Part shown: positions 4,314-30,000 of the stretch, piece after piece
Numbering within the stretch: position 1 is the first letter of the stretch
Layout: each line of letters begins with the position of its first letter
From: an uncultured Clostridia bacterium
GTDB lineage: Bacteria; Bacillota; Clostridia; Christensenellales; UBA3700
Assembly (NCBI GenBank): GCA_947038565.1
Contig: CAMQWP010000005.1
Span: 19,763-83,762 of the forward strand
Direction: 5' to 3'
DNA length: 64,000 nucleotides
Position numbers and translations under genes: made by a program
Notes under the pieces: model-generated
Database searches by the model: none
What the model saw: only the letters and a program-made list of their open reading frames with translations
Told to the model about the DNA's origin: nothing

Positions 4314-5474
4314 ATGACTAAAGCATTAGAAAAACATGAGAATTGGGGTGGCAAGATAGAAGTAATATCAAGGGTGTCGATGGATACTCAAGAACAATTA
4401 TCTATAGCCTACACGCCAGGAGTAGCAGAGCCATGCTTAGAGATATCAAGGGATAAAGAGCTGAGTTATAAGTATACTAGGCGACATAACTTAGTAGCTG
4501 TAATCACTGATGGAAGTGCAGTATTAGGACTTGGTAATATAGGTGGGCTTGCGGGCATGCCAGTTATGGAAGGTAAGTGTATATTGTTTAAAAAATTCGG
4601 CGATGTTGATGCCTTTCCTATATGTATAAACACGCAGGATACGGATGAGATAGTATCTACTATAGCAAATATAGCTGATTCTTTCGGCGGTATAAATCTA
4701 GAAGATATATCCTCACCTCGATGTTTTGAAATCGAAAAGAGGCTACAAGAGATATGCGATATACCAGTATTTCATGATGACCAGCATGGAACAGCGATAG
4801 TTACCGCAGCTGCACTTATAAATGCACTAAAAGTAACAAACAGGACAATGCACGAATGCAAAATAGTCATTATTGGTACGGGTGCGGCAGGAACTGCAAT
4901 AGCAAAATTATTATTAGTTATGGGGTATAGTGATATCATAATGTGCGATAGAAAAGGAATAATTTACGAAGGCAGGGACGGCATGGATAAGAATAAGATC
5001 GAGCTATCATTGCTAACAAATAAAGAAGATATAAGTGGCGGGATATCGGACGCTCTTAAGGGGCGTGATGTGCTAATAGGTGTCAGTGGTGCGAATACTG
5101 TCAGTGCGGATATGATAAGGCATATGAATGTTGATCCGATAGTCTTTGCTCTTAGTAATCCTATCCCCGAGATTATGCCTGATGAGGCAAAGAACGGTGG
5201 TGCTAAAGTGATCGGCACGGGTAGATCCGATTTCCCTAATCAGATAAATAATGTACTTGCATTCCCGGGTATATTTAGAGGTGCATTAGACGCAAAAGCT
5301 ACGCGTATTACTGATAAAATGAAACAATCAGCCGTGTATGCGATAGCAAATCTAGTGGATGATAGTCAATTAAATGCTGAATATGTGATACCTAATGTAT
5401 TCGATAAAAGAGTATCCGTAGAGGTGTCAAAGTCGGTATATGAGCAGGCTAAAGCGGAGAATATATGCAGATAA
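4314..5474 (+). CDS. NAD(P)-dependent malic enzyme
   Basis: AYTPGVA, VMEGK, INLEDI, FHDDQHGTA, NQINNVLAFPG motifs. Confidence 0.95.
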   Translation: MTKALEKHENWGGKIEVISRVSMDTQEQLSIAYTPGVAEPCLEISRDKELSYKYTRRHNLVAVITDGSAVLGLGNIGGLAGMPVMEGKCILFKKFGDVDAFPICINTQDTDEIVSTIANIADSFGGINLEDISSPRCFEIEKRLQEICDIPVFHDDQHGTAIVTAAALINALKVTNRTMHECKIVIIGTGAAGTAIAKLLLVMGYSDIIMCDRKGIIYEGRDGMDKNKIELSLLTNKEDISGGISDALKGRDVLIGVSGANTVSADMIRHMNVDPIVFALSNPIPEIMPDEAKNGGAKVIGTGRSDFPNQINNVLAFPGIFRGALDAKATRITDKMKQSAVYAIANLVDDSQLNAEYVIPNVFDKRVSVEVSKSVYEQAKAENICR

Positions 5475-5636
5475 TGATAGATTGACAGCCTATTATGTGA
5501 GATGAACACTCCCCCTTATACTGAGTATATAATATATATAATAATGTCTTAATTTAAGATAATAGTAGGGTAGCGGACATTTTTAACTGATAACGTGATA
5601 TCAGCTGTTCGTTAAGTATATATATTTTACAAATTA

Positions 5637-5665
5637 TTGACTAAGCAAAAGTTATGTGTTAGTAT
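5637..5665 (+). promoter_or_regulatory. Sigma-A-type promoter of the Hsp70-SNF2 operon
   Basis: TTGACT-N17-TAGTAT with extended -10 TG, ending 33 nt before the ATG at 5699. Confidence 0.55.
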
Positions 5666-5698
5666 TATTATATTATACAATAAGGGGAACAAAATAAC

Positions 5699-7216
5699 AT
5701 GAAAAAAATACTTTACAGTTTGGATCTAGGTAATGATTCTTTAAAAATGTGTTATTCTTATGAGCATAAAGGAAAAGCTGTTGTAGGTAATCTACAGCTT
5801 TTAGATGATAGAGACACTGTGCCTGCGGTTGCTTTATACGATTTAGATAATGACAGCTGGAATTATGGTGCTGAAGCGTTAGCTCTCGCGGAAAATTCTC
5901 AGCGTCCTATAGTTAGAATTAAAGAACTTATGGAAGGGGCTGGTTCAGCAGATTTTTATAATGGATATGATTTTGAAAATACTGATTTTGCATACAAGTT
6001 TAGATCGGTTTCTTTAACAGTAAAGCAAGTACTTAATGGCTTTTTCGATTATGTATTAGTTGACTTGTTAGCTAAGGCGATTGCTAAACTGGATATTGAT
6101 GATTCGGAGCAAGCTAATCAAATCATATTTACTTTCCCAAGCAAGGTAAGCGATGATTGCAAGATAGTGATGAAGAGTATTATACAGTCGCTAGGCTTTA
6201 ACCCTCGTGCTATCGCTGAGCCTACTGCGGCGGCTGCGTACTGTATGAATGACGGCGTGAAGCTGGGCAAACATGTTTTGGTAGTTGATATTGGTGTGAA
6301 GGAGTCTTCTATCGCAATATTTAATCCTAATTCTAGTACTGTTGATAGTCTTAATATGCTAAAGATCGATAGTATCAATCAGGGAAGTAAGGATTTCGAT
6401 AATGCTTTGTTTGAGCATGTTGTTTCTCAATCAGGTAAGGTAGAGGAAATAACTAATTATCAGAAATTCAAATTGTTAGAGCAGATAAGAGCTGCTAAAG
6501 AAAGTTTGAGTTCTGGTGAGCAAGAAGTAATGCTTGAGTATCAGTCTGACTCGGTAGTGTATGTAAACGTGTCTAAAGAACAGTTTAATGATATTTGTAA
6601 TCCTATCATGGTAGATATTGCAAATTCAGTTTTAAATCTGATAAATGAGAATCCTGATATTAATCAAGTTATTTTGTCTGGTGGATCGAGCAAAAACCCA
6701 CATTTGATAGATGTAGTAAGTGAGCTTGTAAACAAAAAATTCCCAAGTGTTAACTTATATAATATCTCTAAAGGAATTTTTGGTGTTGCGCATGGTGCTG
6801 GTATTATCGCAACAGGAGTTTCTAGTTTTCAAAGCATTGCGACTAAGGGTTATGGTTTCGCTTGTACTAAGGGTTCTAATAAAAAAGCTCCTTTCGGTCT
6901 GCAAATAGTAATCAATAAAAATGATAAACTTCCTATATCCGTTACGAAGAAAGTTGCACTCAAAGAAAAAAATCAGAAGAGCGTGGAAATCAATGTGATG
7001 TCTACTGATATGGAGACTAAAGCAAATGCTTTTATTACTCCTATAGGCGAAACTGAAAATTCTCTTCAATGCGGTGTAATGGAGTTTGATACTAAAGTGC
7101 GTAAAGGTGCTTTAATAAAGGTTCGAGTGTTTATTGATGAGGACGGCATCGGCGGAGTTGAAGTCGTAGGACCAAAGAAAAAAGGCACTTATAAGACAAG
7201 TTTTGAAATAGACTAA
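5699..7216 (+). CDS. Divergent Hsp70-family protein (NBD plus beta substrate-binding domain, no helical lid)
   Basis: LDLG, AEPTAAA, VVDIG, DFDNAL, AKESLS, LSGGSS, VAHGA motifs; SBD-like INKNDKLP...NQKSVEINV...IDEDG; only 505 aa. Confidence 0.88.
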   Translation: MKKILYSLDLGNDSLKMCYSYEHKGKAVVGNLQLLDDRDTVPAVALYDLDNDSWNYGAEALALAENSQRPIVRIKELMEGAGSADFYNGYDFENTDFAYKFRSVSLTVKQVLNGFFDYVLVDLLAKAIAKLDIDDSEQANQIIFTFPSKVSDDCKIVMKSIIQSLGFNPRAIAEPTAAAAYCMNDGVKLGKHVLVVDIGVKESSIAIFNPNSSTVDSLNMLKIDSINQGSKDFDNALFEHVVSQSGKVEEITNYQKFKLLEQIRAAKESLSSGEQEVMLEYQSDSVVYVNVSKEQFNDICNPIMVDIANSVLNLINENPDINQVILSGGSSKNPHLIDVVSELVNKKFPSVNLYNISKGIFGVAHGAGIIATGVSSFQSIATKGYGFACTKGSNKKAPFGLQIVINKNDKLPISVTKKVALKEKNQKSVEINVMSTDMETKANAFITPIGETENSLQCGVMEFDTKVRKGALIKVRVFIDEDGIGGVEVVGPKKKGTYKTSFEID

Positions 7217-10026
7217 TGTCAGAGGGAAAATTTATGAAAGATAATAAAATAGCAAAATGTGTACTTAATGGAGAAGAGAAGCTAGGATCATTGTCTAATA
7301 CTAATCCAATTAACTATGTCGAGAAAAAAGAATATCTGGATGAAGCAGAAAAGATAGATAAAATGGATATGTTTGATCATTTAGCAATAGATGATTATGA
7401 TTATGGTCAAAGAGAGTATCTTGTCGATAATAAAATAAAGACTGTCGGTATTAAGATCGATAATGCAATACATTATACTGGTTGTCCTATTTTACCACAT
7501 CAAAAAAACGCAGTTAAAAAATTCTTAGGAGATTTTAGAGGCGTGGGCATACTTGCAGATGAAGTTGGTATGGGTAAGACTGTAGAGGCTGGAATGGTTG
7601 TATGTGAGCTTGCTGAGAGAAATCTAGCATCATCAATCTTGATTGTCTCTGCATCTGATGATAACTGCAATGACTGGGAATACACTATGTCAGTATTCTT
7701 TGGCATGGTAGGACTTGTTCGTGTTCACAACTCGAGAGAGATCCGTGATAACTGCGAAAAGCAAATCCCGTCAGTACCACTTATAATAACTTTTGCTGAT
7801 TTTTGCAAAATACATAAAGACGAGTTTCAAAACGTACTATTCGATGTAATAGTATTTGATGAGGCTCATAACATGGATAATAGCGATATAGGTAAGATAG
7901 GTATGTCAAATCTTAGGACGCTAATGGCTACTAAGAAAGTTAGGAATAAACCTTATTGTATTCTAGTTTCAGGTACGCCACATAAAGGTAATCTAGACTC
8001 AATGTTCCCGCTATGGTACTTTATAAAGGGTGGTAATGATGAGGAAATCGCACGAGAGCATTATAAAAAATTCTTGTGTCATGAGGCATCTACTATAGCA
8101 GAGTTTGTGGAGTCATATAAGATAAGTGAGCTAAACAAGGACATGGAGTTCTTGAAGTTCATGAACTCTAAGCGTGACTTATTAAAGGATGAGGATCCAG
8201 TGAACTGGGCTCAGAACTTTAAACTTTTTGAGTATCACTACAGGGATGAGTTTATAAAAGACAAGGGTAATAAAGTCAAAATTGCTGAGATCAATAAAAT
8301 AACTCGTGAGGCTTATAAAAATCTTATTGATTGCTTTATGATAAGGCAGTCAAGAAAATGTAATCAAGGTAGGTTTGTTAGTAAAAGAGCGTCTAACTAT
8401 TTCTTCGCACCAGTCAATAAGACTGGAGGTAGTAAAGTTATCGAATTTAATAATTATGAAAACCCACAGTTTACCGATCTTTCTTGCAACTTCTCGTTTG
8501 ACCTAAATGATATTTATGGTCCAAAGGCTATTCTATATAGAGATCAGTACAAGACTATAGAAGAATTTGTTAGAGGCATGGTAAGAAGTAATGTATTAAA
8601 AGATGATGCGGAGCTTAATAGACTTAAAAATCAGCTTATATTCGAGTCACTAGAGCAATTAGATGGTTTTTATGATAAATTCGATGATCACGGTAAGCGT
8701 AGAATAATCGACGGTAAATATTACTTAGACTCTGTAGGTAATTACTACAAACACGATATAAAGAATTATTTCGGTATTGTAGATGAGACTGAAACTGATT
8801 TATTTACTCTAAAAGCTGAGAAATTAGCACAGATTATCATGGATCCTTCTAGATTAAATGAAAAGATGATTATTTTCTTCGATTATTATAATATCGATAA
8901 GAGTGATGAGAATGCTCGTCTTTATGAGTATTACAAAGAAAAATATCCAAAAATATACGAGAGGATTATATTCTCTGATGACGATGGATATGCGGCGGAT
9001 GTGTTCTCTGCAAAGAAGAGCAATCCGAATGAAAGGGAGACATTGCAAGCTAAAAGTGGCTTATTATTCTCTTCAGAGCCTCTAAGCGAGAGCTCAAACT
9101 TCCAGTTCTGCCATTTGGCAGTAAACTTCTCTATATGTTATAGCCCTATTAAGATGGATCAAAGAATTGGTCGTATTGATAGAATTGGTCAAGAAAATAA
9201 CATGGAAGTAATATCTTTTGCGACAATGGAGACATTAGAGGGCTATCTATTAGCATTCTTTAACCAAATCCAGATATTTAGTGGTTGGAAAGATGATATT
9301 ATCCTAGTTACAGGCTGTGATAATAAGAATACTTCTACAATGAGATGTTTAGAGTGTGGTAAGATAGTAAGAAGTTTTGATGGAAGTACTAGTTGTCCAA
9401 ACTGTGCTACGATCGACTCTCTAAGACCACTAGTTAATGCTTATAGTTATAAGTGTCCTAGCTGTTCATATAAGTTTATGCGTATGGCTACAGGATCTAA
9501 GACTGAGGGACATTCTTACGTTTGTTCTAGAAACAAGAAACTTACTGAGCACAACAATGATCGAAGGCTTGGTATTGATAATACTTTCTACATATGTAAT
9601 AAAAAGTGTTCTATCCTACATTGCAGACGTGCTGAAAAAGTAGAATGTGCTGTATATGCAGAACTGAAGAACGACTACAACACTGACATAAATGTACTTA
9701 GAAAACTATGTAATAATTGTACGAATAAAATATGTGATACTTGTCACATTATGATAGATACTCTTGGTACTGATATCGTTACTAAAGAACATATGGGACA
9801 AAGCTGTATAGAATGTCCTTCAAAGAACGCTCTATGTACTACTAAGGTTAATATCAATAGCCCTATATGCGAGATGTGTCATAGTGAGCTAGAGCCTATA
9901 GTACCTGCTACGTTTGATGAGTTTGCTGAATTCATTTGGAATGAGCCTACTTTCGTAAGCGATTTCTCGTTTGAGGTAAGAAAAATCAGTGAAGTAGTAA
10001 ACGTATTAAGAGAGGAGGATAAGTAA
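7216..10026 (+). CDS. SNF2/RapA/YqhH-like helicase-ATPase with Cys-rich C-terminal domain
   Basis: LPHQ, LADEVGMGKT, DEAH, SGTP, QRIGRIDRIGQ; seven CxxC pairs after motif VI; start overlaps the upstream stop (TAATG). Confidence 0.9.
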   Translation: MSEGKFMKDNKIAKCVLNGEEKLGSLSNTNPINYVEKKEYLDEAEKIDKMDMFDHLAIDDYDYGQREYLVDNKIKTVGIKIDNAIHYTGCPILPHQKNAVKKFLGDFRGVGILADEVGMGKTVEAGMVVCELAERNLASSILIVSASDDNCNDWEYTMSVFFGMVGLVRVHNSREIRDNCEKQIPSVPLIITFADFCKIHKDEFQNVLFDVIVFDEAHNMDNSDIGKIGMSNLRTLMATKKVRNKPYCILVSGTPHKGNLDSMFPLWYFIKGGNDEEIAREHYKKFLCHEASTIAEFVESYKISELNKDMEFLKFMNSKRDLLKDEDPVNWAQNFKLFEYHYRDEFIKDKGNKVKIAEINKITREAYKNLIDCFMIRQSRKCNQGRFVSKRASNYFFAPVNKTGGSKVIEFNNYENPQFTDLSCNFSFDLNDIYGPKAILYRDQYKTIEEFVRGMVRSNVLKDDAELNRLKNQLIFESLEQLDGFYDKFDDHGKRRIIDGKYYLDSVGNYYKHDIKNYFGIVDETETDLFTLKAEKLAQIIMDPSRLNEKMIIFFDYYNIDKSDENARLYEYYKEKYPKIYERIIFSDDDGYAADVFSAKKSNPNERETLQAKSGLLFSSEPLSESSNFQFCHLAVNFSICYSPIKMDQRIGRIDRIGQENNMEVISFATMETLEGYLLAFFNQIQIFSGWKDDIILVTGCDNKNTSTMRCLECGKIVRSFDGSTSCPNCATIDSLRPLVNAYSYKCPSCSYKFMRMATGSKTEGHSYVCSRNKKLTEHNNDRRLGIDNTFYICNKKCSILHCRRAEKVECAVYAELKNDYNTDINVLRKLCNNCTNKICDTCHIMIDTLGTDIVTKEHMGQSCIECPSKNALCTTKVNINSPICEMCHSELEPIVPATFDEFAEFIWNEPTFVSDFSFEVRKISEVVNVLREEDK

Positions 10027-10030
10027 GATT

Positions 10031-11632
10031 ATGGCTAAAAGAATAATAATACCGAATGAGGACGAGTTCTTTAGTGTTTGTAAGCTAATTGATGCTAACC
10101 TCTCTCAAAAAGATACTAGGTACAATCACAGCGAAGATAGTATATATGTAGATGGTTTAGAGTTTGTAAGGTCAAAAGACTTTAAGGAAGAAGAAAGCGA
10201 AGAAAATGGATATGTAGTGACCGAGTTCGGTAATACAAAGAAATTCACTAGGTTTGATAATTTCTCTAAAGCTACTCGCAGCGAAGACAATGACATGACT
10301 TGGGATAACGTTGTAAGCGAAAACCTTGACACTTTCTATAAGCTAAATAGCTTTTTGATATACGCGCCTTATGATGAGGATACTTTTGCTAGTGATAGCG
10401 AGATAGTTAAGCAAAGACTTGTGAAAATGCTGCCTGCTATACATGATAGACTTGTTATCAAGCATACAGAATCAGCTGATAAAGAGACTATTTACGAAGT
10501 AGCAATCAAGTTCAGATTCGTCTTTAGAGGCGAGCCAAAATACATAATTAATAAATTTTACTTTGACGCGGAGTATAATGTATTCACTCCTTCTCAGTCA
10601 AAAATGCTACACGAACAAATAAATATCATTATCAAGGACGCGAAAAGCGGTGATCTTGATGAGGATAGCAAGATAAGCATAGAGTCTGATCAAGTAATCA
10701 GGATTACTAATAATATCTTAGAAATCATGAAGATGAATGATGGTTTCCAGAGTTATTTAGTAGGTGAAGCTAAGCAAATTTTTGATAATTACGTTATCGA
10801 CTCGAGACATAACGGTCAGTTTAACGTGGAAGTAAGTTGCGATAGAGCTAAACTTAGATATATTGCACACTTGAAGATGCGTTTGAAAGAGTATAAAGTC
10901 ATCGACTCTCATTCTCAACAAGAGATATTTATAGCTACTGTAGGTATGAATGGAGATATAGATCTTACTTGTACCAAGTGCGGTACAAATGTAATATCTC
11001 AAGACGTTGTTGCTTATGCTACTATCGGTGCTAACGGTAAAGAGAGTATCGAGTATGATAATATTAATGATATTACGGATCTAAATATTTCTAATTCGTT
11101 GTTGGCTAAGCATTGTATGCTACCTCCAGCAATGTGCAAGAACTGTAATATGCTTTTATGTAATGAATTGCTTGCTACTTGTACAGAGTGTGGTAAGACT
11201 TTATGTGTCGACTGTAATGCTGGTAATATCGTTGATCAGTATACGCTAGATAACGAATTGCATTATTTCCACACTAGTTGTGGTGTATATTGTGAAGATA
11301 CTTTTCAGACACTGCCTAAGTCATTTACTAAACGTTGTGGCATGTGTGGTAAAGTAAATTCTAATAGTTATTATTCTGAAAAAAGTAACATGTGTAGTCT
11401 ATGTGAGCCTATATATACGGACGAAATTTTTGACGACGAAGAGTACAGAAAATTATATGCTATTAATAAACAAATTTTACCTCTTCACTTGAGGAGAAAG
11501 AATAATATCTGTAATGAGAATTTTGATAGTGTTTTGTTTAAAGTAGTTAAGGGTAAAAAAGAGCTGTTTTATAGATTTGATAAAAGTCAACTTGCAAAAA
11601 ACAAGGCTTTAAAATTAACTAAAGTTCACTGA
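10031..11632 (+). CDS. Hypothetical protein with multi-CxxC (Zn-binding) C-terminal half
   Basis: 533-aa ORF with AGGAGG RBS; CTKC, CKNC, CTEC, CVDC, CGMC, CSLC. Confidence 0.85.
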   Translation: MAKRIIIPNEDEFFSVCKLIDANLSQKDTRYNHSEDSIYVDGLEFVRSKDFKEEESEENGYVVTEFGNTKKFTRFDNFSKATRSEDNDMTWDNVVSENLDTFYKLNSFLIYAPYDEDTFASDSEIVKQRLVKMLPAIHDRLVIKHTESADKETIYEVAIKFRFVFRGEPKYIINKFYFDAEYNVFTPSQSKMLHEQINIIIKDAKSGDLDEDSKISIESDQVIRITNNILEIMKMNDGFQSYLVGEAKQIFDNYVIDSRHNGQFNVEVSCDRAKLRYIAHLKMRLKEYKVIDSHSQQEIFIATVGMNGDIDLTCTKCGTNVISQDVVAYATIGANGKESIEYDNINDITDLNISNSLLAKHCMLPPAMCKNCNMLLCNELLATCTECGKTLCVDCNAGNIVDQYTLDNELHYFHTSCGVYCEDTFQTLPKSFTKRCGMCGKVNSNSYYSEKSNMCSLCEPIYTDEIFDDEEYRKLYAINKQILPLHLRRKNNICNENFDSVLFKVVKGKKELFYRFDKSQLAKNKALKLTKVH

Positions 11633-11648
11633 TTTACAAGGAGTAACG

Positions 11649-14600
11649 ATGAATTATAAAAGTAAAAAATCAATTTTCCATGATAATGTTATAAACAAGG
11701 AAGAATTGTCTCAAGATACAAATAAAAAACTAAAGGATAGCAAATATTTGATATTATTACTTGACGTGCTTATGTTATGTGTTAATATTTTCATGCTTGC
11801 GTACTTTGTTATAAAAGGTTTTGATATCATAGCTATTTCTATACTAGGACTTATCGTCCTACTAGATTGCATACATATGATATTATCTATATTCTTTAAT
11901 CATAAGTTTAGATCAAGTATAATATTTACGAGCATTTACAGCTTGGTGTTATTGATATTGACAGCTTGCGTGTACACTATGAGTTATTTCATTTTTGATG
12001 GAGTGACTATATTTGAGAACGTAGGTATTGCTGTATCTGTTGGTATAAGGTTGGTATACTTTATAACTACTATAGCAACTCTTATCCTTATAACTAAAAA
12101 TAAAATAAAGATCGCACAGCCAATTATTATTATAATTTTGGCGGTGAGTTTATTGTTCGGATCTGTAGCTTTTGGTGCTATAAGAGGTGTATACGGTTCT
12201 GGTAGCGGTATATTAGAAGGCAATAAAACTCTAGAGTATAAGCTACGTGAAGCAGATGAATTCTATCCTGAAACTCACTATGAGGTAGTAGGCAGTTTGG
12301 ATAGTAAATATTCTAATATTATAGTTCCTGATGAGTTCAACGGTCAAAAAGTCCGTGCTATTGATTATGAAGTATTGCTTACAGAGGGCGTTACGAATAT
12401 CAATATCGATACAAAAGAAGCTATAAGTGTCAAGAATACTGAGAAAGAAGGCGTTATAAGTAATGATCTTTCTATCAATATGCCTAAAGACGTTATAGAT
12501 CAATTTAAGCAAAATATTTATAACAACATTGATGCTAGTAACGTTAACAAAATTGCACTAGCAAATATGGTAGATCCACAGCTTGGTGAGGGCGAGTATG
12601 CTGTTAAATTTAACTACGATACTACTAATTATCCAGAGGATCTATTGAATGCTGATGGTACATATAATTATGTTAAAACTTTTTATGGTGCTGAGAAATC
12701 AAACACTACTTTAAAGTCAATATTCGATGCTAATACTGATTATAAAGATTACTATACTAATAATTACGAGACACAAGATTATCAGTGGAGTTATGATAAT
12801 AAAAGCCAGATGGCGATGATACTAAAGTCTAACTTGGATAGCGATGATATCAGTAAAAGTACTACTATAAATATTAGTTTTGAAGATGTTTACAAAGTCA
12901 ATTATGATTTTACTCATAATGAAAATGACAATTTTATCGCTACCCGCGACGACAAAACAGTAAAGACTGATAAATACATTATCGAGTCGGATCTAAGTGA
13001 TATAGAGTTTTATGAGGATATAAGATTCGGCTGTGATGTTAGCTGGAGTGTTAATTCTGATGGCGCAACAACTGAAGTTATTTCAAATGCATCGGAAGTC
13101 TTATCATTCATTCAGTCTAATAATATTAGCACTGAAAAAGAGATAAACATGAAAGCCACTTGGAACATGAGAGTTCCTGAGGGATCAAATCTTTCTGTTG
13201 ATAGTAACGGAATTGCGACTGATAAGATCACTTATGGTGATGATTTAGCAGTTAAATTCTATACAAGTGATGGCTATGCAAAAGAGAAGTATAATTGGTC
13301 TATCATGCAAGGCGATAAAGAAATCGCGAACGTAAATTGGATCTATACTAGTCAACTAAGTAATAATATTGTCTTTGTACAAAATTCTACCGATGGTGTT
13401 ATGTATAATAAAAAGGGTACTTTTGCACCAATTTTTGAGAAGTTTGCACTGCTTAATGCTTCGGAGTTGACTATCAAATTAGATTATATAGTTATAGACG
13501 AGTTCTGTAGTGAAATAACAGCAAATTATGAGCATGAGACTAGTATTACTGTTACTCCAAAGACCGTTAATTTAGACTGGACTATTGATGAAGCGGAGTT
13601 AAATTCTGTACAAGATCATATTGTATATAACAATGCTATTCATACCGTAAGTGCGACTATTTATAATGCTGATATTTGTTCAGTTGATGATACAAATGGA
13701 ACTAGTCCACAAGCAAAAATATCTGATAATAAACTTAAGTATTCTAAAATTTACTCAGTTAAAGCTGAAATAGTTGGCAACCTTAATTATGTTATCAGTG
13801 ATGATAATGGTATTAGTCCTTCTACTATTAAGAAAGTCGAAGTAAAGAAAGCTAAAATACATATATCGTACGATTATACTTATGACGGAGACTTATCACC
13901 TCAAGTCGGTAAGACTTCACTAGAAGGATTGATGTATGTTGGTAAACAATACAAGATCACTCCAGTGTTTAAGATCGAAATCGCTCCTGATACCTTTAAA
14001 CTTCTTAGTGAAGCTGATGGTATAGATCCATATAGTATTTACACTTATGACCTTGATATCAAGGACGCAAAAGGATATACTATTAAGTACGATTTTTCTA
14101 CTGTAAAATCAAGTTCTGATGATAAAGTAGCCGTTTCGAAAAGTTATGAGTTTAATACTAATGAGTGTAAGTTCAAAATTGGTAAAAATATAATAAAAGA
14201 TACTGATATTACATGGACTGAAGAAGAGCTTACATATACTGCGGGAGAGCAAAAGTATCTAGGTACTTATAATTTAGTAGGCGATGATGTTAAAACTGTT
14301 ACAACTAATCAAGTTTCTACTGAAGCTCTTATTATTGCAGGCAGTCATGAAACAAAAGTTAGCTTTGACGCTGAGTCTGCGAACTATGAATTAGCTCCTA
14401 ACGTAATCAAAACACTACTAATAAGAAAGAAAGTAGTAACTGATATTGCATTTAATACAAATACAGCAGTTTATGCTAATAAGTCATTAAATAATAATAA
14501 TAGTGGATTTAATTCTACTGCTATAGGTGTTGATTCATTAAATCTTATTATCGAAAATGCGACTTACAATGCAGGTAATGTTACCGAGTTTAAAAATGTT

Positions 14601-17600
14601 GGTGAATATAGTGATGTAGCTGTAGCGTTGTCAGTAACTGATAGTGCAAACTATACATTTACTGTATATGATCCTGCAAATACTGAAAATAACGGTTATA
14701 CTAATAAACTTGCAACAGTACAGACACTATCTATTACAAAATATAAGCTGTTGGAAGATAATTTAAATAAAATCAAAGAGAAAATATACGATGCTGGACT
14801 AGTTGAAGCTCCAAAAACCCTGACGGGTAGCTATTGTGGTGAAACAGTTGATTTTGCTGTTACATTTTACAAGAGTGAAATCGGTTATGGTAAAAATGTA
14901 GGAGTGGTTAAGTATTCAATCAAAATGGATAGTGCAACCGCGGGAAATTATGACGCGTCAGGAGTGGAATCACTTGTATCACTTTCATATAACATAACTC
15001 CTAGATATGTATCAGTAAATCTAATCGATCCAGCTAGCATTATATACAGTGCTGAACGTCAAGTATTCGATTATCAGTTAATACCTCAAGGTGTGAATTC
15101 TACTGCATGTCAGGATGAGATTGCGCAGGGCGAGTTAGATGGCAATAAATTTATCAACTTTGCTACATTGAATGCTATACAGGCTAAAGATTATATATTA
15201 ATTGATGATCATTTGGATAGTATATATACAGCAAATTATAAAGTAAATAATACTATTTTCACCGTGCATGCACGTGATATCACTGATGGGAAAATTACGT
15301 GGGGCACGTTTAAAGCTCAGTATAACGGATCTGAACAAGGTCTTACTGGTACATTTAGTGGACTTGGAACGGATAAAGTTACCGTTTCGGGCACTAAATA
15401 TATGGATGTAAAACGTGCAGGAGGAAGTTACGATGGCGAGGTACTTGCTTACGAGTATAGAGCGGGTGATTTAACTGTCAATAATAAAAATTATATTGTT
15501 ACAGGACTACCAAAAGTTTTGGTAGGTGATATTTTAGTGGGTGTAACATTCACAATTGAGCCTAAGACTATGGTGTATACAATAACGGATAATAAGTTAA
15601 TTGGCAATACGCTAACTTATACATATTCTGGTGTAGATAATAGACCGACATTTACAACCCCTGATGGTGCAAATAATATATCTATTAATACATTTATGGG
15701 TGATGAACATAGTACAAACTTTACTGATGCTACTGTTGATGCTAATAATTTAGTTATAGATAAGAAGTTGGTGATGGTGTCAGCTAGTCCTAACTATAAT
15801 ATCGTGGCAGATAACAAAAATTATGCTGTTAGAATTAATAAAAAGGAAATTGATCTTAACATACCAACTAGTGTGACGTATAATGGTAAAGAAAACTTAC
15901 CTGCATCTAAAGATTTTGCTAATAGTGCATTATATACTGGCGTGTCTGGTAGTGATAATATGAGCGTAGGTGCACATAAAGTTAATGTAGAACTAACTGC
16001 AGAATATAAGAAAAATCATACAATAAAAGGATCTACAGTTGGAGACAAGTCAACAATTATACATGACTATACTATTACACAGGCTACGCTTGATAATACT
16101 AACGTTGAGTACAGAGCTACTCAAAACATCGGTGAAGAGTTTAATAATATGGTACCTCTTAGTGCTGTAGTATATAATGGTGTAAGTTGGACTATTGTTG
16201 CGAAGATTACGAAAGACTGGGGTACGGGCTCTCCTCAATCAGTATTTATTTATACTGGTGTTGGTGTTAATGTAGCTCAAACTGATTACTCGGTAGGCGG
16301 TTACAAGATAAACGTTGCTATGGAAAATAATCAATTATATAATCCTACTAATTTTGACATTAGTAACTATATCTTGTCAGGTAATTTAGAAGCAAATTAT
16401 AATATCGCTCAGTATGCTGTAAGTGCAAAAGATAAATTGAATGTTTTCTTAGTAGGTAATGAGGACATAAACTTAGTTAAAACAAGTGTAAATCCTGTGT
16501 TTAATAATATTGTCAGAGTGCCAAGCGCAGAGTTTACTCCTAATATTCCTAATCCAACATTGATGAAGATTGATACTATTACAGAGGAAAGTGGGTTGGT
16601 GATAAAAGACGCACAAAATTATGTATTATTATTATCAATATCAAATACGAACTATGTATTCGAAGTTGGCTCTGATAGGATACTATTTACTATAGATGCT
16701 AAAACAATTGACGCAAGTGATATTCCTACGGGCGATCTTGTTTGGGATAATAACGCAACTGTTCAGTTTGATAATTCTGATAAATACATATTTACAGGTA
16801 ATATAGCAATTGACACTTTGAATATTAAGATTACTTCTAACTTTAATGCAAACATTGCTCGCAAGTATACTAACGAAGATTATGCAGACTCTAATTTCGT
16901 GTTAGATAATAACAATTACAAAATCATTAATATTTCTCAGGTGTTCACTGTTCTTCAAGCTACTATTGATCTGGCAAATATTAAGTGGTCAGTTAATGAT
17001 GTAGAGACTGTTGGAGAATTGAGCGCAGTATATAATCATGGTGCGATGCCGGTAATTACTGCAGTATATAATGCTTTTAATGCTATCATATTGAAGTTTA
17101 CAATAGTACCAGAAGTTGAAGGTCAAGTCTACAACGCAAATGAAGGCAATCCGGATGTTATTTATAACTTCATAGCAACAAATACAAATGCAAATTTTGA
17201 ATTCAATTCTGCTACAAGTATTACGAAAGCGGTCACTATTACGCGTCTAAACATTAGCGATCCGACTAGTATCACATGGACTTTAGCAAATGAAGAAAAA
17301 TATAACGAACTACCTGCAAGCAGATATACAGGAGCTGCTATTGTTCCTACTGCTACTATTGAAGGCGTATCGTTAAAGTTAAGTGCTGATTATTCTAGTA
17401 ATATCAATGCTAATATCACAGATCCTTATAAAGTTACTATTCTTGCAGCGCAAGATAACTTTAATATTGATTCTGGATTATTAAGCTATACATATTATAT
17501 TTTAAAAGATAGCATTATAGCAAAAAATATAAAGTTTGAAAATAATGTATCTACTATGCCAGGACGTAATGAGTTTACATATAATGAATCATTACCGATT

Positions 17601-18329
17601 GTGTTTGTTTCATATATTATGTATAATGATGAAAAGATAATTCTTAATGCTGTCGATTCAAAAGAACAGACTGATGTTCGTCCTACTCCATACCAGGTTA
17701 CTGTAACACTTGGCGAGAATGCGAATTTTGAACTTGCTGAAACAGTGATTGATTATTATATCGTGCCTAAGACTATTACATATACTTGGTCAAATTTGGA
17801 TAACCAATCTTATTTAGTTGCTACACTTTTACCGAGTTTAACTATATCGGGTAATGCAAAGCCTCAAAACATGACTAAAGACTTGTATATAGTATATAGT
17901 AACGGTACTACTAAATTAGTAGAAGCTGGTAAGGATTTAATCAACGCTGGCAGTTACAAGCTACTTTATAAGTCTAAAAAATATAATGGTAATAGCAATT
18001 ATAAAATTATTGATGAAAAAGCTGATTTTACGATAAATAAAGCAGATATAAGTGGATTTGATGATGAGATGATAAAACTTGTTGGTAAAACAAGTGTTAC
18101 GTATACGGGATCAGCTATAGTTATGCCTAAGTTGGTGATAGCAGAACAAAATATTTTAGGCGGATTAGATTATTATCGTGTAGTTGATGGCGTGATTAGT
18201 ATTGCTCCTATTCGTAAAATTGTCGATGTCGGCGAGTATGCTCTAAAAGTAAATTGCAATCAAGTAATTGGTGGAAACTTTACAGGTAAGCATACGAAAA
18301 CATTTAAGTTTTTTGTGAATGCAAAATAA
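11649..18329 (+). CDS. Giant membrane-anchored surface protein: about 5 N-terminal TM helices plus a long beta-rich repeat stalk (MBG/YDG-like)
   Basis: 2226-aa ORF with AAGGAG RBS; hydrophobic helices at about aa 32-178; recurring W...Y[NT]G and NY...TI[KP] units; no C-terminal anchor. Confidence 0.85.
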   Translation: MNYKSKKSIFHDNVINKEELSQDTNKKLKDSKYLILLLDVLMLCVNIFMLAYFVIKGFDIIAISILGLIVLLDCIHMILSIFFNHKFRSSIIFTSIYSLVLLILTACVYTMSYFIFDGVTIFENVGIAVSVGIRLVYFITTIATLILITKNKIKIAQPIIIIILAVSLLFGSVAFGAIRGVYGSGSGILEGNKTLEYKLREADEFYPETHYEVVGSLDSKYSNIIVPDEFNGQKVRAIDYEVLLTEGVTNINIDTKEAISVKNTEKEGVISNDLSINMPKDVIDQFKQNIYNNIDASNVNKIALANMVDPQLGEGEYAVKFNYDTTNYPEDLLNADGTYNYVKTFYGAEKSNTTLKSIFDANTDYKDYYTNNYETQDYQWSYDNKSQMAMILKSNLDSDDISKSTTINISFEDVYKVNYDFTHNENDNFIATRDDKTVKTDKYIIESDLSDIEFYEDIRFGCDVSWSVNSDGATTEVISNASEVLSFIQSNNISTEKEINMKATWNMRVPEGSNLSVDSNGIATDKITYGDDLAVKFYTSDGYAKEKYNWSIMQGDKEIANVNWIYTSQLSNNIVFVQNSTDGVMYNKKGTFAPIFEKFALLNASELTIKLDYIVIDEFCSEITANYEHETSITVTPKTVNLDWTIDEAELNSVQDHIVYNNAIHTVSATIYNADICSVDDTNGTSPQAKISDNKLKYSKIYSVKAEIVGNLNYVISDDNGISPSTIKKVEVKKAKIHISYDYTYDGDLSPQVGKTSLEGLMYVGKQYKITPVFKIEIAPDTFKLLSEADGIDPYSIYTYDLDIKDAKGYTIKYDFSTVKSSSDDKVAVSKSYEFNTNECKFKIGKNIIKDTDITWTEEELTYTAGEQKYLGTYNLVGDDVKTVTTNQVSTEALIIAGSHETKVSFDAESANYELAPNVIKTLLIRKKVVTDIAFNTNTAVYANKSLNNNNSGFNSTAIGVDSLNLIIENATYNAGNVTEFKNVGEYSDVAVALSVTDSANYTFTVYDPANTENNGYTNKLATVQTLSITKYKLLEDNLNKIKEKIYDAGLVEAPKTLTGSYCGETVDFAVTFYKSEIGYGKNVGVVKYSIKMDSATAGNYDASGVESLVSLSYNITPRYVSVNLIDPASIIYSAERQVFDYQLIPQGVNSTACQDEIAQGELDGNKFINFATLNAIQAKDYILIDDHLDSIYTANYKVNNTIFTVHARDITDGKITWGTFKAQYNGSEQGLTGTFSGLGTDKVTVSGTKYMDVKRAGGSYDGEVLAYEYRAGDLTVNNKNYIVTGLPKVLVGDILVGVTFTIEPKTMVYTITDNKLIGNTLTYTYSGVDNRPTFTTPDGANNISINTFMGDEHSTNFTDATVDANNLVIDKKLVMVSASPNYNIVADNKNYAVRINKKEIDLNIPTSVTYNGKENLPASKDFANSALYTGVSGSDNMSVGAHKVNVELTAEYKKNHTIKGSTVGDKSTIIHDYTITQATLDNTNVEYRATQNIGEEFNNMVPLSAVVYNGVSWTIVAKITKDWGTGSPQSVFIYTGVGVNVAQTDYSVGGYKINVAMENNQLYNPTNFDISNYILSGNLEANYNIAQYAVSAKDKLNVFLVGNEDINLVKTSVNPVFNNIVRVPSAEFTPNIPNPTLMKIDTITEESGLVIKDAQNYVLLLSISNTNYVFEVGSDRILFTIDAKTIDASDIPTGDLVWDNNATVQFDNSDKYIFTGNIAIDTLNIKITSNFNANIARKYTNEDYADSNFVLDNNNYKIINISQVFTVLQATIDLANIKWSVNDVETVGELSAVYNHGAMPVITAVYNAFNAIILKFTIVPEVEGQVYNANEGNPDVIYNFIATNTNANFEFNSATSITKAVTITRLNISDPTSITWTLANEEKYNELPASRYTGAAIVPTATIEGVSLKLSADYSSNINANITDPYKVTILAAQDNFNIDSGLLSYTYYILKDSIIAKNIKFENNVSTMPGRNEFTYNESLPIVFVSYIMYNDEKIILNAVDSKEQTDVRPTPYQVTVTLGENANFELAETVIDYYIVPKTITYTWSNLDNQSYLVATLLPSLTISGNAKPQNMTKDLYIVYSNGTTKLVEAGKDLINAGSYKLLYKSKKYNGNSNYKIIDEKADFTINKADISGFDDEMIKLVGKTSVTYTGSAIVMPKLVIAEQNILGGLDYYRVVDGVISIAPIRKIVDVGEYALKVNCNQVIGGNFTGKHTKTFKFFVNAK

Positions 18330-18346
18330 TAAGGGAGGGATTATAT

Positions 18347-19564
18347 ATGATATGTGATTTTTGTAAAAAAGAGATAGTAAAACCTATTATAGCTAATAAT
18401 GGCAATATGTATTGTGATCAATGTTTATCTAGTATATTTGGAACTCAACTTATGGAAAGCGTTTCACTTGATTTTGGCGTAGATACTACTAATAAATATA
18501 TTAAGTCAGAGCAGTTGTTTAATGAGAGCATTGCGATAGCTGATAAAGATTATGAGAGATCTATCAGCCTTAAAAATCAAGCATTAGATCTTTGCTTGCA
18601 ATCAAGCATAAAAGGTAACCCTTTCGCTATGGTAAACTTAGGTTTCTATTTTGAAAACGGCTACTTCGATGGAGATAGACTTGATATCATCTTAAATGCT
18701 ATGCGTTGGGATGTTGCTATCGCTATATACGAGCCAGAAGTGGCAAATATTTTAGGCATGAAACCTCTTGCAATAGAATCTGATAAGCTCATTTCTATTA
18801 GCGAGCTAATTGGCACTGCTATTTATAATTTACAGTGCTTGCTTAAGAATAATTATAACTTTATTGAAAATAGTAATCTGAAAAATTTATTTAAGATGGA
18901 GACTATTACCGTAATTAGATTATTGCAAAACACTTTAGTTAAAAAGGGTGTATTTGTATCAAATGAAAACGATGAATCAGCTAATAATATAGACGCGGAA
19001 GAGCTAATCAATGCAAATGCGATAGTTGCTAGCGAAGATCCACGTGATATTATAATAAATTTAGCTAGTAGTAGCGATCATATGATATTCGATATTCGTA
19101 ATCAAAGCGGTAATTTGATTTATAAAGAATTGTTTGATATGAATAAGTTAAGTAGAAAATTATCAAAACAATTTTTTAGTAAATACATAGTAGTTATCAA
19201 GACTGATGAATTAAGTATAACGGCTAGTAGCGTTTCGGATTATGCAGAGCAGTACAAAAAGAGGCTCATAACATTTAATGGTATCAGCACTCTTGGTGTT
19301 ATTGCTAAAAAAGATAAGAATGTGAAGATGGCTTTTAATACGATCGGTGGAAAGAAACAAGCATTTAATGTGAGTTTCAACTCGGCAAAGTGTAAAGATT
19401 ATATAATCAACAATGTCGATGAGGATATGCTTTTTGGTAGCTTTACGGCGGAGCGAGTTAAGGTGCTTGCAGCTAGCATGTATCGCAACTCAAAAGTTGG
19501 TAATAGTACTGATTATAAGTCTGAAATATTACAAAAAGCAAGCAGTTTTATCAAATTAAAATAA
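18347..19564 (+). CDS. Hypothetical protein with N-terminal C4 zinc finger and a Sel1-like repeat
   Basis: CDFC-x16-CDQC at the N-terminus; GNPFAMVNLGFYFENGY fits the Sel1 pattern; GGAGG RBS. Confidence 0.8.
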   Translation: MICDFCKKEIVKPIIANNGNMYCDQCLSSIFGTQLMESVSLDFGVDTTNKYIKSEQLFNESIAIADKDYERSISLKNQALDLCLQSSIKGNPFAMVNLGFYFENGYFDGDRLDIILNAMRWDVAIAIYEPEVANILGMKPLAIESDKLISISELIGTAIYNLQCLLKNNYNFIENSNLKNLFKMETITVIRLLQNTLVKKGVFVSNENDESANNIDAEELINANAIVASEDPRDIIINLASSSDHMIFDIRNQSGNLIYKELFDMNKLSRKLSKQFFSKYIVVIKTDELSITASSVSDYAEQYKKRLITFNGISTLGVIAKKDKNVKMAFNTIGGKKQAFNVSFNSAKCKDYIINNVDEDMLFGSFTAERVKVLAASMYRNSKVGNSTDYKSEILQKASSFIKLK

Positions 19565-19588
19565 AAATTGCAATAAAATCTGATAATT

Positions 19589-19634
19589 TAAATCAAATAA
19601 TACGCTACTTAATTGTAGCGTATTATTTGATTTA
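19589..19634. terminator. 20-bp perfect hairpin closing the five-gene operon
   Basis: TAAATCAAATAATACGCTAC-ttaatt-GTAGCGTATTATTTGATTTA. Confidence 0.8.
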
Positions 19635-19753
19635 TAAGCATTATCTTACTATTGGCCAGTATGATTATTTTGCATTATTGGATACAAAATTGATTTAATT
19701 GCACTATATACGAGTAGATTGAACTGGAATAACTAAGTAAGTTATTTAATCTA

Positions 19754-19782
19754 TTGCAAAATAGATATTAATGTGTTATAAT
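19754..19782 (+). promoter_or_regulatory. Sigma-A-type promoter of the ABC exporter
   Basis: TTGCAA-N17-TATAAT with extended TG. Confidence 0.55.
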
Positions 19783-19819
19783 TTACATTATATATATAAA
19801 AATAATTAGAGAGGCGAAA

Positions 19820-27090: not shown

Positions 27091-30000
27091 ATGAAAAAGA
27101 AAATAACGGTGATGTTTTCTGTCTTACTTGTATTAGTTTTGCTTGTCAGCACGCTAGTAGCATGTAAGAAAGAAGACGACGAAAAAAAGAAGCCAACACC
27201 TCCTACTGCTAATGATATAGCAGAAGGTTATGCTGGTGAAATGAAAGATCTATTAGTTAATAGTATCGGTGCGGATATCGCAAACGGCTTCAACATGGAT
27301 TTGACAGGTGAGGTCGGTTTTGACTTTAAGTCGGCTGATAAAGATAAATATGACTGGAACTACAGTTACGATATTGCAGGTAATGTTTTATCAAAAGCTG
27401 GCGTTAACAGTGATTTCAGAATTGTAATCAAAGACGGAGCGAATGTAAAGTTTGGGCTTTGGAACAAGGGAGGAGATTTATTTATCCAAGCATCGGATAA
27501 GCAGTATAAGTATGATGACACTTCTATCATGGTATTGTTAAATACACTTATAGCTAAGCATGTTCCGAATTTTGCTGGCTTAACTACGCTACCAGAGATC
27601 AGTGTAGGTGGAGGCACTATTGGTGAAATTCTTCAACTATTAGACATGGGACTACAAATGCTTTGTGCTGATCCGAATGTGGAGGATTTAGACGCTAACC
27701 TAATGATATCTAAGGTAGATAATACATATACTGCAAAAATTCAAGTTGACGTATTGAAGTCAATACTTGGATTAGCTCTAAAAGATATGGATTTAAGTTT
27801 TATACCAAGCGGACTAGTAGTAGATCTTGTTATGGTTGCAAATGATGATAAGACTATTAAAAAGTTAGACGTGAAGGCTGATGTTACGGGTACAGAAGAG
27901 GGCAAATTGAATTTTGAACTTAACACTTCTAACCGTGGATTATTCGCCGCAGTAAATGCTGATTTTAAAGTAAATGTACCTGATGCACTACTTGCAGTAG
28001 AAAGTAAACACAAACTTATCAATTTTAATATTGATAGCACTGTAAAGTTTATGGACGCTGATAAGAAAGTTGTCCGTGATATGGTATCAAGCATTGATGT
28101 AGATATCAATCCGACAGTATTAAGCCAGGGATATACTAAAGAAACATTTATGAAACTAGGATACTTCAGTATGACAGTTAAAGTTAATGATGGACCATAC
28201 CTAATAGGTTTAAGCTTTAACCCAGAGGCAACAGGCGACGATTGCGTAAATGTTTTTCTAATGTTAGCGCAAGACAATAACGATATATCAAATCCTGCAA
28301 AGGATATGGCATACGCAGGTCAATTTAGTATTAGTACATTAATTGCTAGCTTGACTAAAAATGTAGATTATACTAATCCTGTAAAGCCTGCTCCAGTATC
28401 TACTATGGTTGCAGCAGAAGGTGGTATAAACTCTACTATTAAAACTATTCTTAATACTATATTACCTATGTTAGGTATTAAAGTTGACATTAGTCCTATA
28501 ATCGACTGTATTGATATTAAAAATGGTATTTCAACTATAGATTGTAAGACTCTTTTCGTAGAGCTTGACAAATTAATCGGTTCTAATATCTTTAGTAAAC
28601 CAATTTTAGGCGAACTAAGCGTACCTAATCTATTATTCGGCAAGGGCGTACAGTATATAGAGCTTGATACAACTAAATCAGAATACGGCACTGCTCAAAA
28701 TGTCGTACTTGATCCAAATATGTTCATAGCAAAAGGTATGGAACGCAAAGTAAATGAAGGAAACGGATTCATTAAGACAAGTACTATAAAAGTAGATGAG
28801 ACAAAATTTGTTGGAAAATTTGAGTTCGGTACAGCTATCGAAGATGTATATCCAACAGTTCCAGTAAGCTATAGTAACACTAGTGGAGAGTTAAAAGAAA
28901 GTAATCTTATGATCGGTGGTATTATCGGTTATAATCCACTTATAGCAGGTAAACAAAATATTACTTTACAGTGCATAATGATTTCAGAGATCGGTGGTCT
29001 AGTTGATATCATTGGAGGATTTATTGGAGGAGATAAACCACTTTCTTTAATGCCATATATATCTTTCATACCTATAAATATGGAAGTAGAAGTATATGAA
29101 AAATCTGCAGTAACTATAGTAACTGAAGGTGTTACAACAATGAAAGTTGGAGATAATTTATTCGATACTATAGCTACAAAATTATCTGTAGGCGGTAGAG
29201 AATATCCAATAGCAGATAACAGACACTTTATCAAAACAAAACTTATTGATATTATTGATGGAAGTGATCTTGCAAAGAAAGCAGGAGTATACACTTTAGA
29301 GTTTAATATTTCTGGAGAAGTTTGCACAATGGCTATAACAGTAGTAGACGTGAAAAATGCAAACATAGTTCTTGGATCAAATCTTGCAGAAACGTTAAAA
29401 CCAACTATGTTTACGGACGTAGAAACAGCTCTAGCCGCTGATGATATCACATCTATTATGATAGACGATATTGATGTGAAGAGTGATCTTATTACTGCTG
29501 ACGGCATAATTGCAGAACTAAAACAATATTTAGGAAAAACAGCTACTATTAATTACAGCGTAGTGGTGAATGATATTACAATGACATTTGCACGAGAAGC
29601 TGTTGTATGTCCGAATGGTAAAAATGTAACCGTAATGTATACTCAATCATCTTTTTATAGTGATCTTACAGTTAATTCAACTTTAGATTTTGTTATATGT
29701 ATTGACTTATATGATAATGGTGTTAAATTAGAACAAGATATTAGAATCAGAATGAATGCAATAGTTAATCATAATATGGATTATACATATTTCGTTAATA
29801 ATGAAAATGTAACAGAAAGTAATATCGTTGTAACTATATTAGATACAAATGGTGCTGATGTTACAGCTGAAGTATTAAATGATAATGGTACATTTAAAAC
29901 AGCTGGCACTTATGATATTAAAGTAAGTGGAACATTTAAGTATAATGGCGAGTTAGTAACAATTAAAGATAATGAAAAAGATGGCTATATTTTAAATGGT

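Follow-up and report, generated by a model that had tools for sequence, protein, structure and literature searches.

Within a 64,000-nucleotide stretch of contig CAMQWP010000005.1 from an uncultured Clostridia bacterium, five consecutive genes code for an Hsp70-like ATPase, a SNF2 motor with a cysteine-rich tail, a cysteine-rich protein outside any known family, a giant membrane-anchored surface protein, and a protein that begins with a zinc ribbon. The whole stretch is referred to as the window, coordinates are positions in it unless a locus is named, and the genes are numbered 1 to 5 in their order along the + strand. These five genes form a conserved operon that is carried, in scattered fashion, by a minority of gut-type Firmicutes genomes: The module is real and conserved, and as a five-gene unit it is apparently undescribed. 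From the sequences we propose that the operon encodes an undescribed multi-protein machine, for which an envelope-anchored conflict system directed against phages or mobile elements is the likeliest, albeit tentative, role.

Conservation and distribution of the five-gene operon

Gene 3 served as the search marker for the system, and a profile built from 37 of its sequences was used for genome sampling. This profile found matches in 18 of 401 genomes from the window's order, distributed over 12 of 173 genera and six families, and in a second order it picked out 4 carriers among 301 genomes. A class-wide sample yielded 4 matches in 399 genomes, namely the window's own genome, two more from its order, and one zinc-ribbon match of 57 residues. 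Up to 20 kb were fetched around 16 gene 3 matches, with genome G679, in which the marker is split over two short contigs, left out (labels with G and L denote our genomes and loci, those with g and f genera and families). In the first 17 loci, the window included, genes 1 to 5 follow one another in the same order on one strand, abutting or overlapping; 15 of these loci are whole, and contig ends truncate the other two. A search with the tail of gene 2 led to a metagenome-assembled genome (MAG) labelled Anaeroplasmataceae, where a contig opens within gene 2, genes 3, 4 and 5 come next, and a gene 1 of the short type described below lies at the end of another contig. Three further loci from the order of this genome have the same arrangement, one of them complete and two cut by contig ends. 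Five-gene synteny across genera had been set beforehand as the test of a common system, and the result is positive: The collinear order 1-2-3-4-5 is kept in 21 of 21 loci (the window and 20 others, with 16 of the 21 complete and 5 truncated at a contig end) from two orders and at least 12 genera, at 20–45% identity to the window.

Within these lineages the module is patchy, being present in 4 of 5 sampled genomes of genus g10 and in 3 of 10 of genus g18. In the window's own genus it was found neither in two genomes searched by profile nor in eight searched with a single sequence. A single-sequence search of 40 relatives likewise gave no match; this negative is weak because the search overlooked G017, G019, G022, and G031, all of which proved to be carriers in the later profile search. 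When same-genus genomes were inspected for an empty site, matches to the malic-enzyme flank numbered 0 of 5, and the ABC transporter flank gave hits at the level of paralogues only (24–40%). In a maximum-likelihood tree of the SNF2 proteins, the window groups with a genome of another family (f107) at a support of 100/100 and is well separated from its own family, of which the tree includes four carriers. Further groupings across families are those of L033 (f117) with f8 and of L036 (f18) with f104. Because the end branch of the window is long and its composition deviates, only starred forks of this tree were used. The flanks of the module differ between most loci and are of a metabolic or housekeeping type, for instance a symporter, diaminopimelate (DAP) epimerase, glycosidases, MnmA, and alcohol dehydrogenase. 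The patchy distribution and the incongruence of the SNF2 tree with taxonomy point to a rare, accessory module that would be mobile in evolutionary time.

The layout in the window corresponds to that of a single operon. An earlier note on this DNA, made from the sequence alone, had described five same-strand open reading frames (ORFs) with a 1-nucleotide (nt) overlap followed by gaps of 4, 16, and 17 nt, a promoter in front, and a 20-bp hairpin behind. The ORFs, which span 5699–19564 (Table 1), lie exactly at these distances. The hairpin is equally well founded: It has a 20-bp stem and a folding energy of −28.7 kcal/mol (z −10.3), and 0 of 200 shuffled sequences were equally stable. The promoter-like site is present as well, but such matches are no more frequent in the region than in shuffled sequence (105 versus 94.7 ± 10.9), for which reason the site is no more than plausible. 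The intergenic region upstream of the operon, which follows a malic-enzyme gene, measures 224 nt, and the downstream gap before an ABC-transporter gene measures 255 nt. The GC content is about 0.33 throughout the window, with no compositional break at the five-gene cluster. One DNA run, which may be the source sample, assembles the whole stretch in one contig. In one RNA-seq run with the same organism label, 13 reads map to 5400–19800 at ≥95% identity and occupy 7 of 30 bins; two other RNA runs have no reads on the operon, and the total is too sparse to judge a single transcript.

Table 1. Features of the five-gene operon (positions in the window)
Feature	Position	Strand	Length	Description
Promoter-like site TTGACT-17-TAGTAT, TG-extended	5637–5665	+		9/12 consensus positions; plausible only
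Ribosome-binding site AAGGGGA	5682–5688	+		10 nt before the gene 1 ATG, read from the sequence
Gene 1	5699–7216	+	505 aa	divergent Hsp70-like ATPase of the short subtype: nucleotide-binding domain as well as a β substrate-binding domain, no helical lid
Gene 2	7216–10026	+	936 aa	RapA-like SNF2 ATPase
Gene 2, Cys-rich C-terminal tail	9316–9879	+	aa 701–888	7 CxxC, predicted multiple zinc ribbons (Cys map)
Gene 3	10031–11632	+	533 aa	Cys-rich protein without known family; marker of the system
Gene 3, zinc-ribbon cluster	10970–11404	+	aa 314–458	six CxxC pairs
Gene 4	11649–18329	+	2226 aa	membrane-anchored surface protein, fastest-evolving of the five
Gene 4, five-helix transmembrane anchor	11736–12197	+	aa 30–183	from hydropathy, alignments of 15 homologues, and charge distribution
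Gene 5	18347–19564	+	405 aa	zinc ribbon at aa 3–26; one Sel1-like helical motif at about aa 83–106; C-terminal half uncharacterised
Terminator-type hairpin	19589–19634	+		20-bp stem, 6-nt loop, 24 nt past the gene 5 stop

The encoded proteins and their accessories in relatives

The protein encoded by gene 1 matches the Pfam family HSP70 (PF00012) with an E-value of 4e-23 and 81.9 bits (cut-off 20.6) over profile positions 113–483 of 599; as the match ends at position 483, the protein is taken to be devoid of the helical lid. It is 21% identical to canonical DnaK, a separate copy of which is encoded on another contig of the window's genome, and its scores of 47.3 bits for DnaK (NCBIfam equivalog cut-off 648) and 67.9 bits for HscA (cut-off 708) indicate that it is not an orthologue of either. 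The best PDB matches of the family profile are the nucleotide-binding domains (NBDs) of DnaK proteins (3.6e-10). In the family alignment the phosphate-1 and adenosine motifs of the ASKHA fold are conserved, and the phosphate-2 aspartate is replaced by asparagine in 5 of 16 homologues (L006, L031, L033, L035, and L036). Two subtypes can be distinguished, each of which is present in both orders: a short one of 494–505 amino acids (the window, G652, and G795) and a long one of 638–707 amino acids, whose NBD contains an insertion and whose C-terminus is extended. The three long-type homologues that were scanned (L005, L006, and L025) lie below Pfam detection at E ≤ 0.01. The sole PADLOC match of gene 1 is to the candidate model PDC-M61B (6.3e-6). 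The absence of DnaJ and GrpE reported in the earlier note holds for the window operon, in whose five proteins Pfam and other domain scans revealed neither domain, but it does not extend to the surroundings of all relatives: 3 of the 21 loci (L005 1299–6043, L023 133–4895, and L034 1–1886) adjoin a canonical chaperone operon in two arrangements, with hrcA-grpE-dnaK-dnaJ downstream of the module in two genomes of one genus and dnaK-dnaJ upstream of it in a third genome. These neighbours hint that the orphan Hsp70 may borrow housekeeping co-chaperones.

Gene 2 combines the Pfam domains SNF2-rel_dom (5.6e-12) and Helicase_C with a C-terminal tail rich in cysteines. The motifs GxGKT, DEAH, TP, and QRIGRxxRxGQ are invariant across 16 family members, as are 17 cysteines of the tail. 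The closest solved relative of the family is RapA (2.6e-28), followed at a distance by eukaryotic remodellers (about 1e-13); the RapA model of NCBIfam nevertheless scores only 84.1 bits (6.9e-24) on gene 2 against a cut-off of 576, which places the protein outside RapA proper. The best PADLOC models are BrxHI (4.8e-31) and DrmD (9.4e-27), both as partial matches to the helicase lobes only and with scores well short of the curated cut-offs, and NCBIfam returns DrmD (3.3e-29, 101.8 bits versus a cut-off of 610) and DpdE (7.2e-16). In a search limited to the tail region, the Cys-rich tail was found in 5 of 253 candidates, only within this family, and hhalign detected no relationship between the tail and the Cys region of gene 3 (probability 3.8%). 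Two minor features of this part of the gene are a borderline match of residues 831–858 (9706–9789) to Pfam Yqai (PF09466; 21.1 bits versus a cut-off of 20.2) and a 25-nt unit repeated 2.3 times at 9688–9744 within the tail; they probably reflect zinc-ribbon similarity and internal duplication, respectively.

For gene 3 no match was found in Pfam, NCBIfam, PADLOC, or PHROGs, nor in the PDB by profile. Eleven cysteines are invariant in its 37 homologues (C314, C317, C369, C372, C377, C392, C395, C436, C439, C455, and C458), namely those of five CxxC pairs together with C377. An AlphaFold (AF2) model based on these homologues is confident, with a predicted local distance difference test (pLDDT) score of 80, and has no Foldseek neighbour at E ≤ 1e-3 among PDB structures or BFVD viral models. 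An exhaustive HMMER profile search of 1.84 billion representatives retrieved 41 clusters, whereas a word-indexed search retrieved 4. The clusters mostly measure 510–635 amino acids, most of them align nearly end to end, and the few that are named are listed as 'hypothetical protein' from Clostridiales or Christensenellales MAGs. Scans of genome and metagenome contigs, which reach close relatives only, gave nothing. A possible identity as a Rep protein was discarded, as the ESM Atlas look-alikes on which it was based (0.81) are within noise.

The hydrophobic segments of the gene 4 protein are confined to residues 30–183 and correspond to about five transmembrane (TM) helices. Since positive charges accumulate on the Lys-rich N-tail and on loops 2 and 4, the positive-inside rule predicts that the N-terminus lies inside and the C-terminus outside, which would leave about 2000 residues exposed. 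Across 15 homologues, the predicted cytoplasmic loop 2 contains an N-x-[KR]-F motif, TM2 a near-invariant aspartate (D73), and the stretch just past TM5 a GQG motif. While the window protein has no Pfam match even at E ≤ 10, its homologues match MBG_2 (1.7e-43), YDG (3.4e-13), and MBG_3 (1.1e-5). Gene 4 is the fastest-evolving member in every close pair compared: It diverges about twice as much as the other four, with close-pair identities summarised as 33–42% versus 52–81% for the other genes (individual values for genes 1 to 5 in three close pairs: 63/77/66/33/59, 71/81/65/42/69, and 50/64/49/35/42%). The TM anchor is only slightly better conserved than the ectodomain, homologues can be as short as 959–1073 amino acids, and tandem DNA repeats were not found in the gene. 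In L033 (7780–11041) gene 4 is split into two ORFs of 504 and 580 amino acids, which may represent a frameshift, a pseudogene, or an assembly error. When a complex was predicted between the TM domain of gene 4 and, as its partners, gene 1 and the N-terminal half of gene 5, the score was 0.23 in a run without controls, compared with a mark of 0.32, which counts neither way as to binding.

Gene 5 had been described as a zinc-finger/Sel1 protein, of which the first half stands: Residues 3–26 form a CxxC-x16-CxxC zinc ribbon. The Sel1 assignment, in contrast, comes down to one weak Sel1-like motif that is conserved in 15 homologues; the protein has no Pfam match, Sel1 (PF08238) included. Further leads in this direction are weak, namely ESM-Atlas look-alikes (0.88) and a PDB Sel1 chain (E 0.35), and the AF2 model is poor (pLDDT 50), with only residues 1–110 confident. 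For three of the module's protein families, no known relatives exist.

In many relatives (L006, L030–L034, L039, L040, and L050), the operon extends downstream of gene 5. Among the first 17 loci, accessory gene 6, a coiled coil of about 495 amino acids, overlaps the end of gene 5 in 9; accessory gene 7, of about 636 amino acids and with an invariant HExxH motif, is present in 7; and accessory gene 8, a superfamily 1 (SF1) helicase of 1481–1491 amino acids with DUF4011, AAA_11, and AAA_12 domains, in 6. In PADLOC, this helicase matches PDC-S37 (1.4e-103) and Hhe (5.8e-46). Seven loci, including the short-type Anaeroplasmataceae one, carry an accessory pair consisting of a helical protein of about 240–256 amino acids (gene 9) and an AAA+ protein of 367–384 amino acids (gene 10). 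The latter matches IetA in PADLOC (1.7e-34), has VAT/p97 as its closest PDB relatives (5.8e-67, Cdc48-like), and is 65–70% identical between loci whose core genes share only 30–48%.

A separate cluster on another contig of the window's genome (L042, C1:197000–212000; ORFs at 5239–8930 on the minus strand) comprises a 384-amino-acid AAA+ protein among three helical proteins of 138–204 amino acids, two of which start with MGFF, next to a 318-amino-acid protein with C-terminal zinc ribbons. The AAA+ protein shares 33–38% identity with accessory gene 10, matches Vps4_C weakly (0.0057), and has, by eye, a TPR/MIT-like N-terminus; one helical protein has a full-length but insignificant Snf7 match (E 0.22). 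As judged from these features, L042 is possibly a bacterial Vps4/ESCRT-III-like cluster. We did not adopt an ESCRT-III/Vps4 assignment for accessory genes 9 and 10 and for L042, for which Pfam offers only Snf7 at E 0.22 and Vps4_C at 0.0004–0.006, and regard it as a lead only. Elsewhere in the window, a + strand ORF of 1330 amino acids at 27091–31083, located downstream of genes for a major facilitator superfamily (MFS) transporter and a DUF5696/GH101-like protein, has no Pfam family at E ≤ 0.001.

Comparison with known systems

Several described systems resemble the module in one of its parts. In outline the module comes closest to Zorya, whose operon likewise encodes both a membrane component and a cytoplasmic ATPase of the SNF2 family, and the near-invariant TM aspartate of gene 4 recalls the conserved TM aspartate which we take to be typical of MotB/ZorB-type stators. 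However, the ZorD model scores only 14.4 bits on gene 2 (E 0.0067) against a cut-off of 1500, and gene 2 is devoid of an Mrr or other nuclease domain. Gene 4 has neither a Pfam nor a PADLOC match, and as no Pfam family matches, no MotA-like domain is detected in it. It is a protein with five TM helices and a huge ectodomain. Counterparts of ZorB and ZorC are missing from the module, and Zorya in turn has no Hsp70. DrmD of DISARM, BrxHI/HII of BREX, and DpdE of Dpd belong to the same bacterial RapA-like SNF2 clade as gene 2, but the module contains neither DrmA/B/C nor a methylase, PglX, PglZ, BrxA/B/C/L, or Dpd genes. The DrmD score of gene 2 remains far below its cut-off, DrmA/B/C and methylase matches are missing from the other operon proteins, and BREX is represented by nothing beyond the partial BrxHI-type match on gene 2. 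RapA (HepA) differs in being a stand-alone housekeeping gene without zinc-ribbon tail, Hsp70, or membrane partners.

A divergent Hsp70 NBD and substrate-binding domain (SBD) recruited to a dedicated operon is also seen in HscA, HscC, CnuD of CoCoNuT, and the GTPase-tubulin-HSP70 systems. HscA and HscC differ from gene 1 in that the window operon has no J-protein in cis. CnuD-type Hsp70-like units, which belong to McrBC-type systems, are argued, in the part of the source available to us, to be poor ATPases used for binding (PMC11090510), and HSP70 occurs in GTPase-centred conflict systems according to the corresponding part of another (PMC7159879). In contrast to these, the operon encodes no McrB GTPase, CnuC/DUF2357, tubulin, or DO-GTPase, which separates it from type III CoCoNuT as far as the latter is defined in the accessible portion of PMC11090510. 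The same portions of both sources (PMC11090510, PMC7159879) describe no partnership of SNF2 with a membrane MBG protein.

As judged by profile scores and gene content, the operon is therefore not a member of DISARM, BREX, Zorya, RapA, DnaK/HscA, or CoCoNuT. The statement of the earlier note that no named system has this composition is upheld by PADLOC, NCBIfam, and the literature: A full-text literature search, which did not cover supplementary neighbourhood tables, returned no description of this gene combination.

Possible functions of the module

The earlier note had envisaged that the Hsp70 couples a surface receptor to a nucleic-acid ATPase in a module serving defence or contact-dependent regulation, which is a plausible proposal. 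If the module is an envelope-anchored conflict system, gene 4 with its five-helix anchor and its long, fast-diverging β-repeat ectodomain would act as sentinel or receptor, and its short cytoplasmic segments, including the conserved loop motif, would dock the cytoplasmic proteins. The lidless Hsp70-like ATPase would then work as an ATP-driven clamp or switch on this assembly and not as a general chaperone. The zinc-ribbon tail of the SNF2 motor, together with the products of genes 3 and 5, would hold or target the motor, which could subsequently translocate on invader DNA or on invader transcription complexes. In relatives, the SF1 helicase, the HExxH protein, and the Cdc48/IetA-like AAA+ pair might serve as effectors, with the window copy constituting a minimal version. 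Circumstantial support for such a conflict role may be drawn from the patchiness, the tree incongruence, the surface protein being the fastest-evolving member, and the defence-type accessories in relatives. A more far-reaching proposal, according to which the module represents a new immune or conflict class with a hypervariable sentinel, a 5-TM bundle, and a lidless Hsp70 clamp that licenses an SNF2 motor, along with two orphan zinc-ribbon subunits, to act on the DNA of an invader or on its transcription, with helicase, protease, and AAA+ effectors as optional additions in relatives, is doubtful at present; if true, this would be the first Hsp70 to act as transducer of a trans-envelope defence signal.

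Other observations weigh against a role in conflict. As the earlier note had already recognised for nucleases, methylases, integrases, and transposases, Pfam, NCBIfam, PADLOC, and PHROG searches detected none of these in the five proteins, nor a toxin or any further effector domain. Genes 3, 4, and 5 lie outside every PADLOC model, and there is no PADLOC system match. RapA, the closest solved relative of gene 2, serves to recycle RNA polymerase and is no defence protein. The replacement of the phosphate-2 aspartate means that ATP hydrolysis may be weak or absent in part of the gene 1 family. The window operon is flanked by housekeeping genes, the malic enzyme upstream and the ABC transporter downstream, and thus does not lie in a defence island; restriction-modification, integrase, transposase, or other defence-island genes were found neither beside it nor beside the 10 neighbours examined. 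Gene 3 had no match in phage, plasmid (tblastn), or viral-contig collections in scans that reach close relatives only. In the window's genome, homologues of accessory genes 6 and 7 are absent and gene 8 is represented by distant SF1 paralogues only, for which reason we regard the window as the minimal five-gene form. MBG/YDG repeat proteins are typical adhesins, and fast evolution of such a protein needs no phage pressure. Finally, a single transcript and a physical interaction of the five products are predictions only.

Unlikely, but the strongest of the alternatives, is a dedicated biogenesis or quality-control module for gene 4 as a giant surface adhesin. The Hsp70-like protein would here keep the ectodomain export-competent with the zinc-ribbon proteins as co-chaperones or adaptors, the RapA-like SNF2 protein would keep RNA polymerase moving through a very long gene, and the AAA+ and HExxH proteins would extract and degrade failed copies. 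This would accord with gene 4 being the only non-cytoplasmic product and having homologues with adhesin-type MBG/YDG repeats, with RapA as the closest solved relative of the SNF2 protein, with the location of 3 of 21 loci directly beside a canonical dnaK operon in two arrangements, with accessories that include a Cdc48/VAT-like unfoldase and an invariant HExxH protein, and with the housekeeping flanks. However, the gene 4 homologues of 959–1073 amino acids keep all four cytoplasmic partners, so that size alone does not call for them, and other MBG proteins are not known to need such partners. Moreover, the PDC-S37/Hhe-type SF1 helicase has no obvious role in protein export, and both the rarity of the operon (18 of 401 genomes) and its incongruent tree would be less expected of a housekeeping aid to export than of an accessory module for conflict.

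We consider it less probable still that the module mediates contact- or ligand-dependent signalling, in which binding to the ectodomain would be relayed through the TM bundle and the Hsp70-like switch would free the SNF2 and zinc-ribbon proteins to reprogramme host transcription. The conserved cytoplasmic loop motif and the near-invariant membrane-embedded aspartate of gene 4, the position of the SNF2 protein within the RapA-like clade, and the existence of a minimal form without effector enzyme would all suit such a relay. Yet Pfam found no DNA-binding regulator domain (helix-turn-helix, sigma, or anti-sigma) in the five proteins, the helicase, AAA+, and HExxH accessories look like effectors and not like regulators, and because the flanks differ between most loci, conserved target genes adjoining the operon are missing.

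That the genes are chance neighbours or a lineage-specific leftover without joint function, such as a degraded mobile element, is highly improbable: Although three of the five proteins cannot be placed in any known family and the window version is devoid of the accessories found elsewhere, the same order in 21 of 21 loci at 20–45% identity in two orders, the intact frames (with the exception of the split gene 4 in L033), the invariant catalytic motifs and Cys ligands, and the absence of an integrase or transposase nearby speak against it, and chance adjacency, being contradicted by the synteny data, is effectively excluded. The probability left over by these explanations falls to functions beyond those listed here.

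The carriers are uncultured gut-type Firmicutes with small genomes, whose defence repertoire is poorly charted. If the module acts in defence or conflict, it would add to prokaryotic immunity a new architecture that unites a membrane sentinel with an Hsp70-like ATPase and an SNF2 motor, as well as three orphan families; it would furthermore assign a non-chaperone job to an Hsp70 and provide a parallel to Zorya for the way in which envelope events reach nucleic-acid motors. If it instead serves adhesin biogenesis or contact signalling, it would still constitute a conserved machine of an undescribed kind, in which a surface protein is linked with a RapA-like ATPase and an Hsp70. Whichever function holds, members of the gene 3 family mark the module cleanly for searches.

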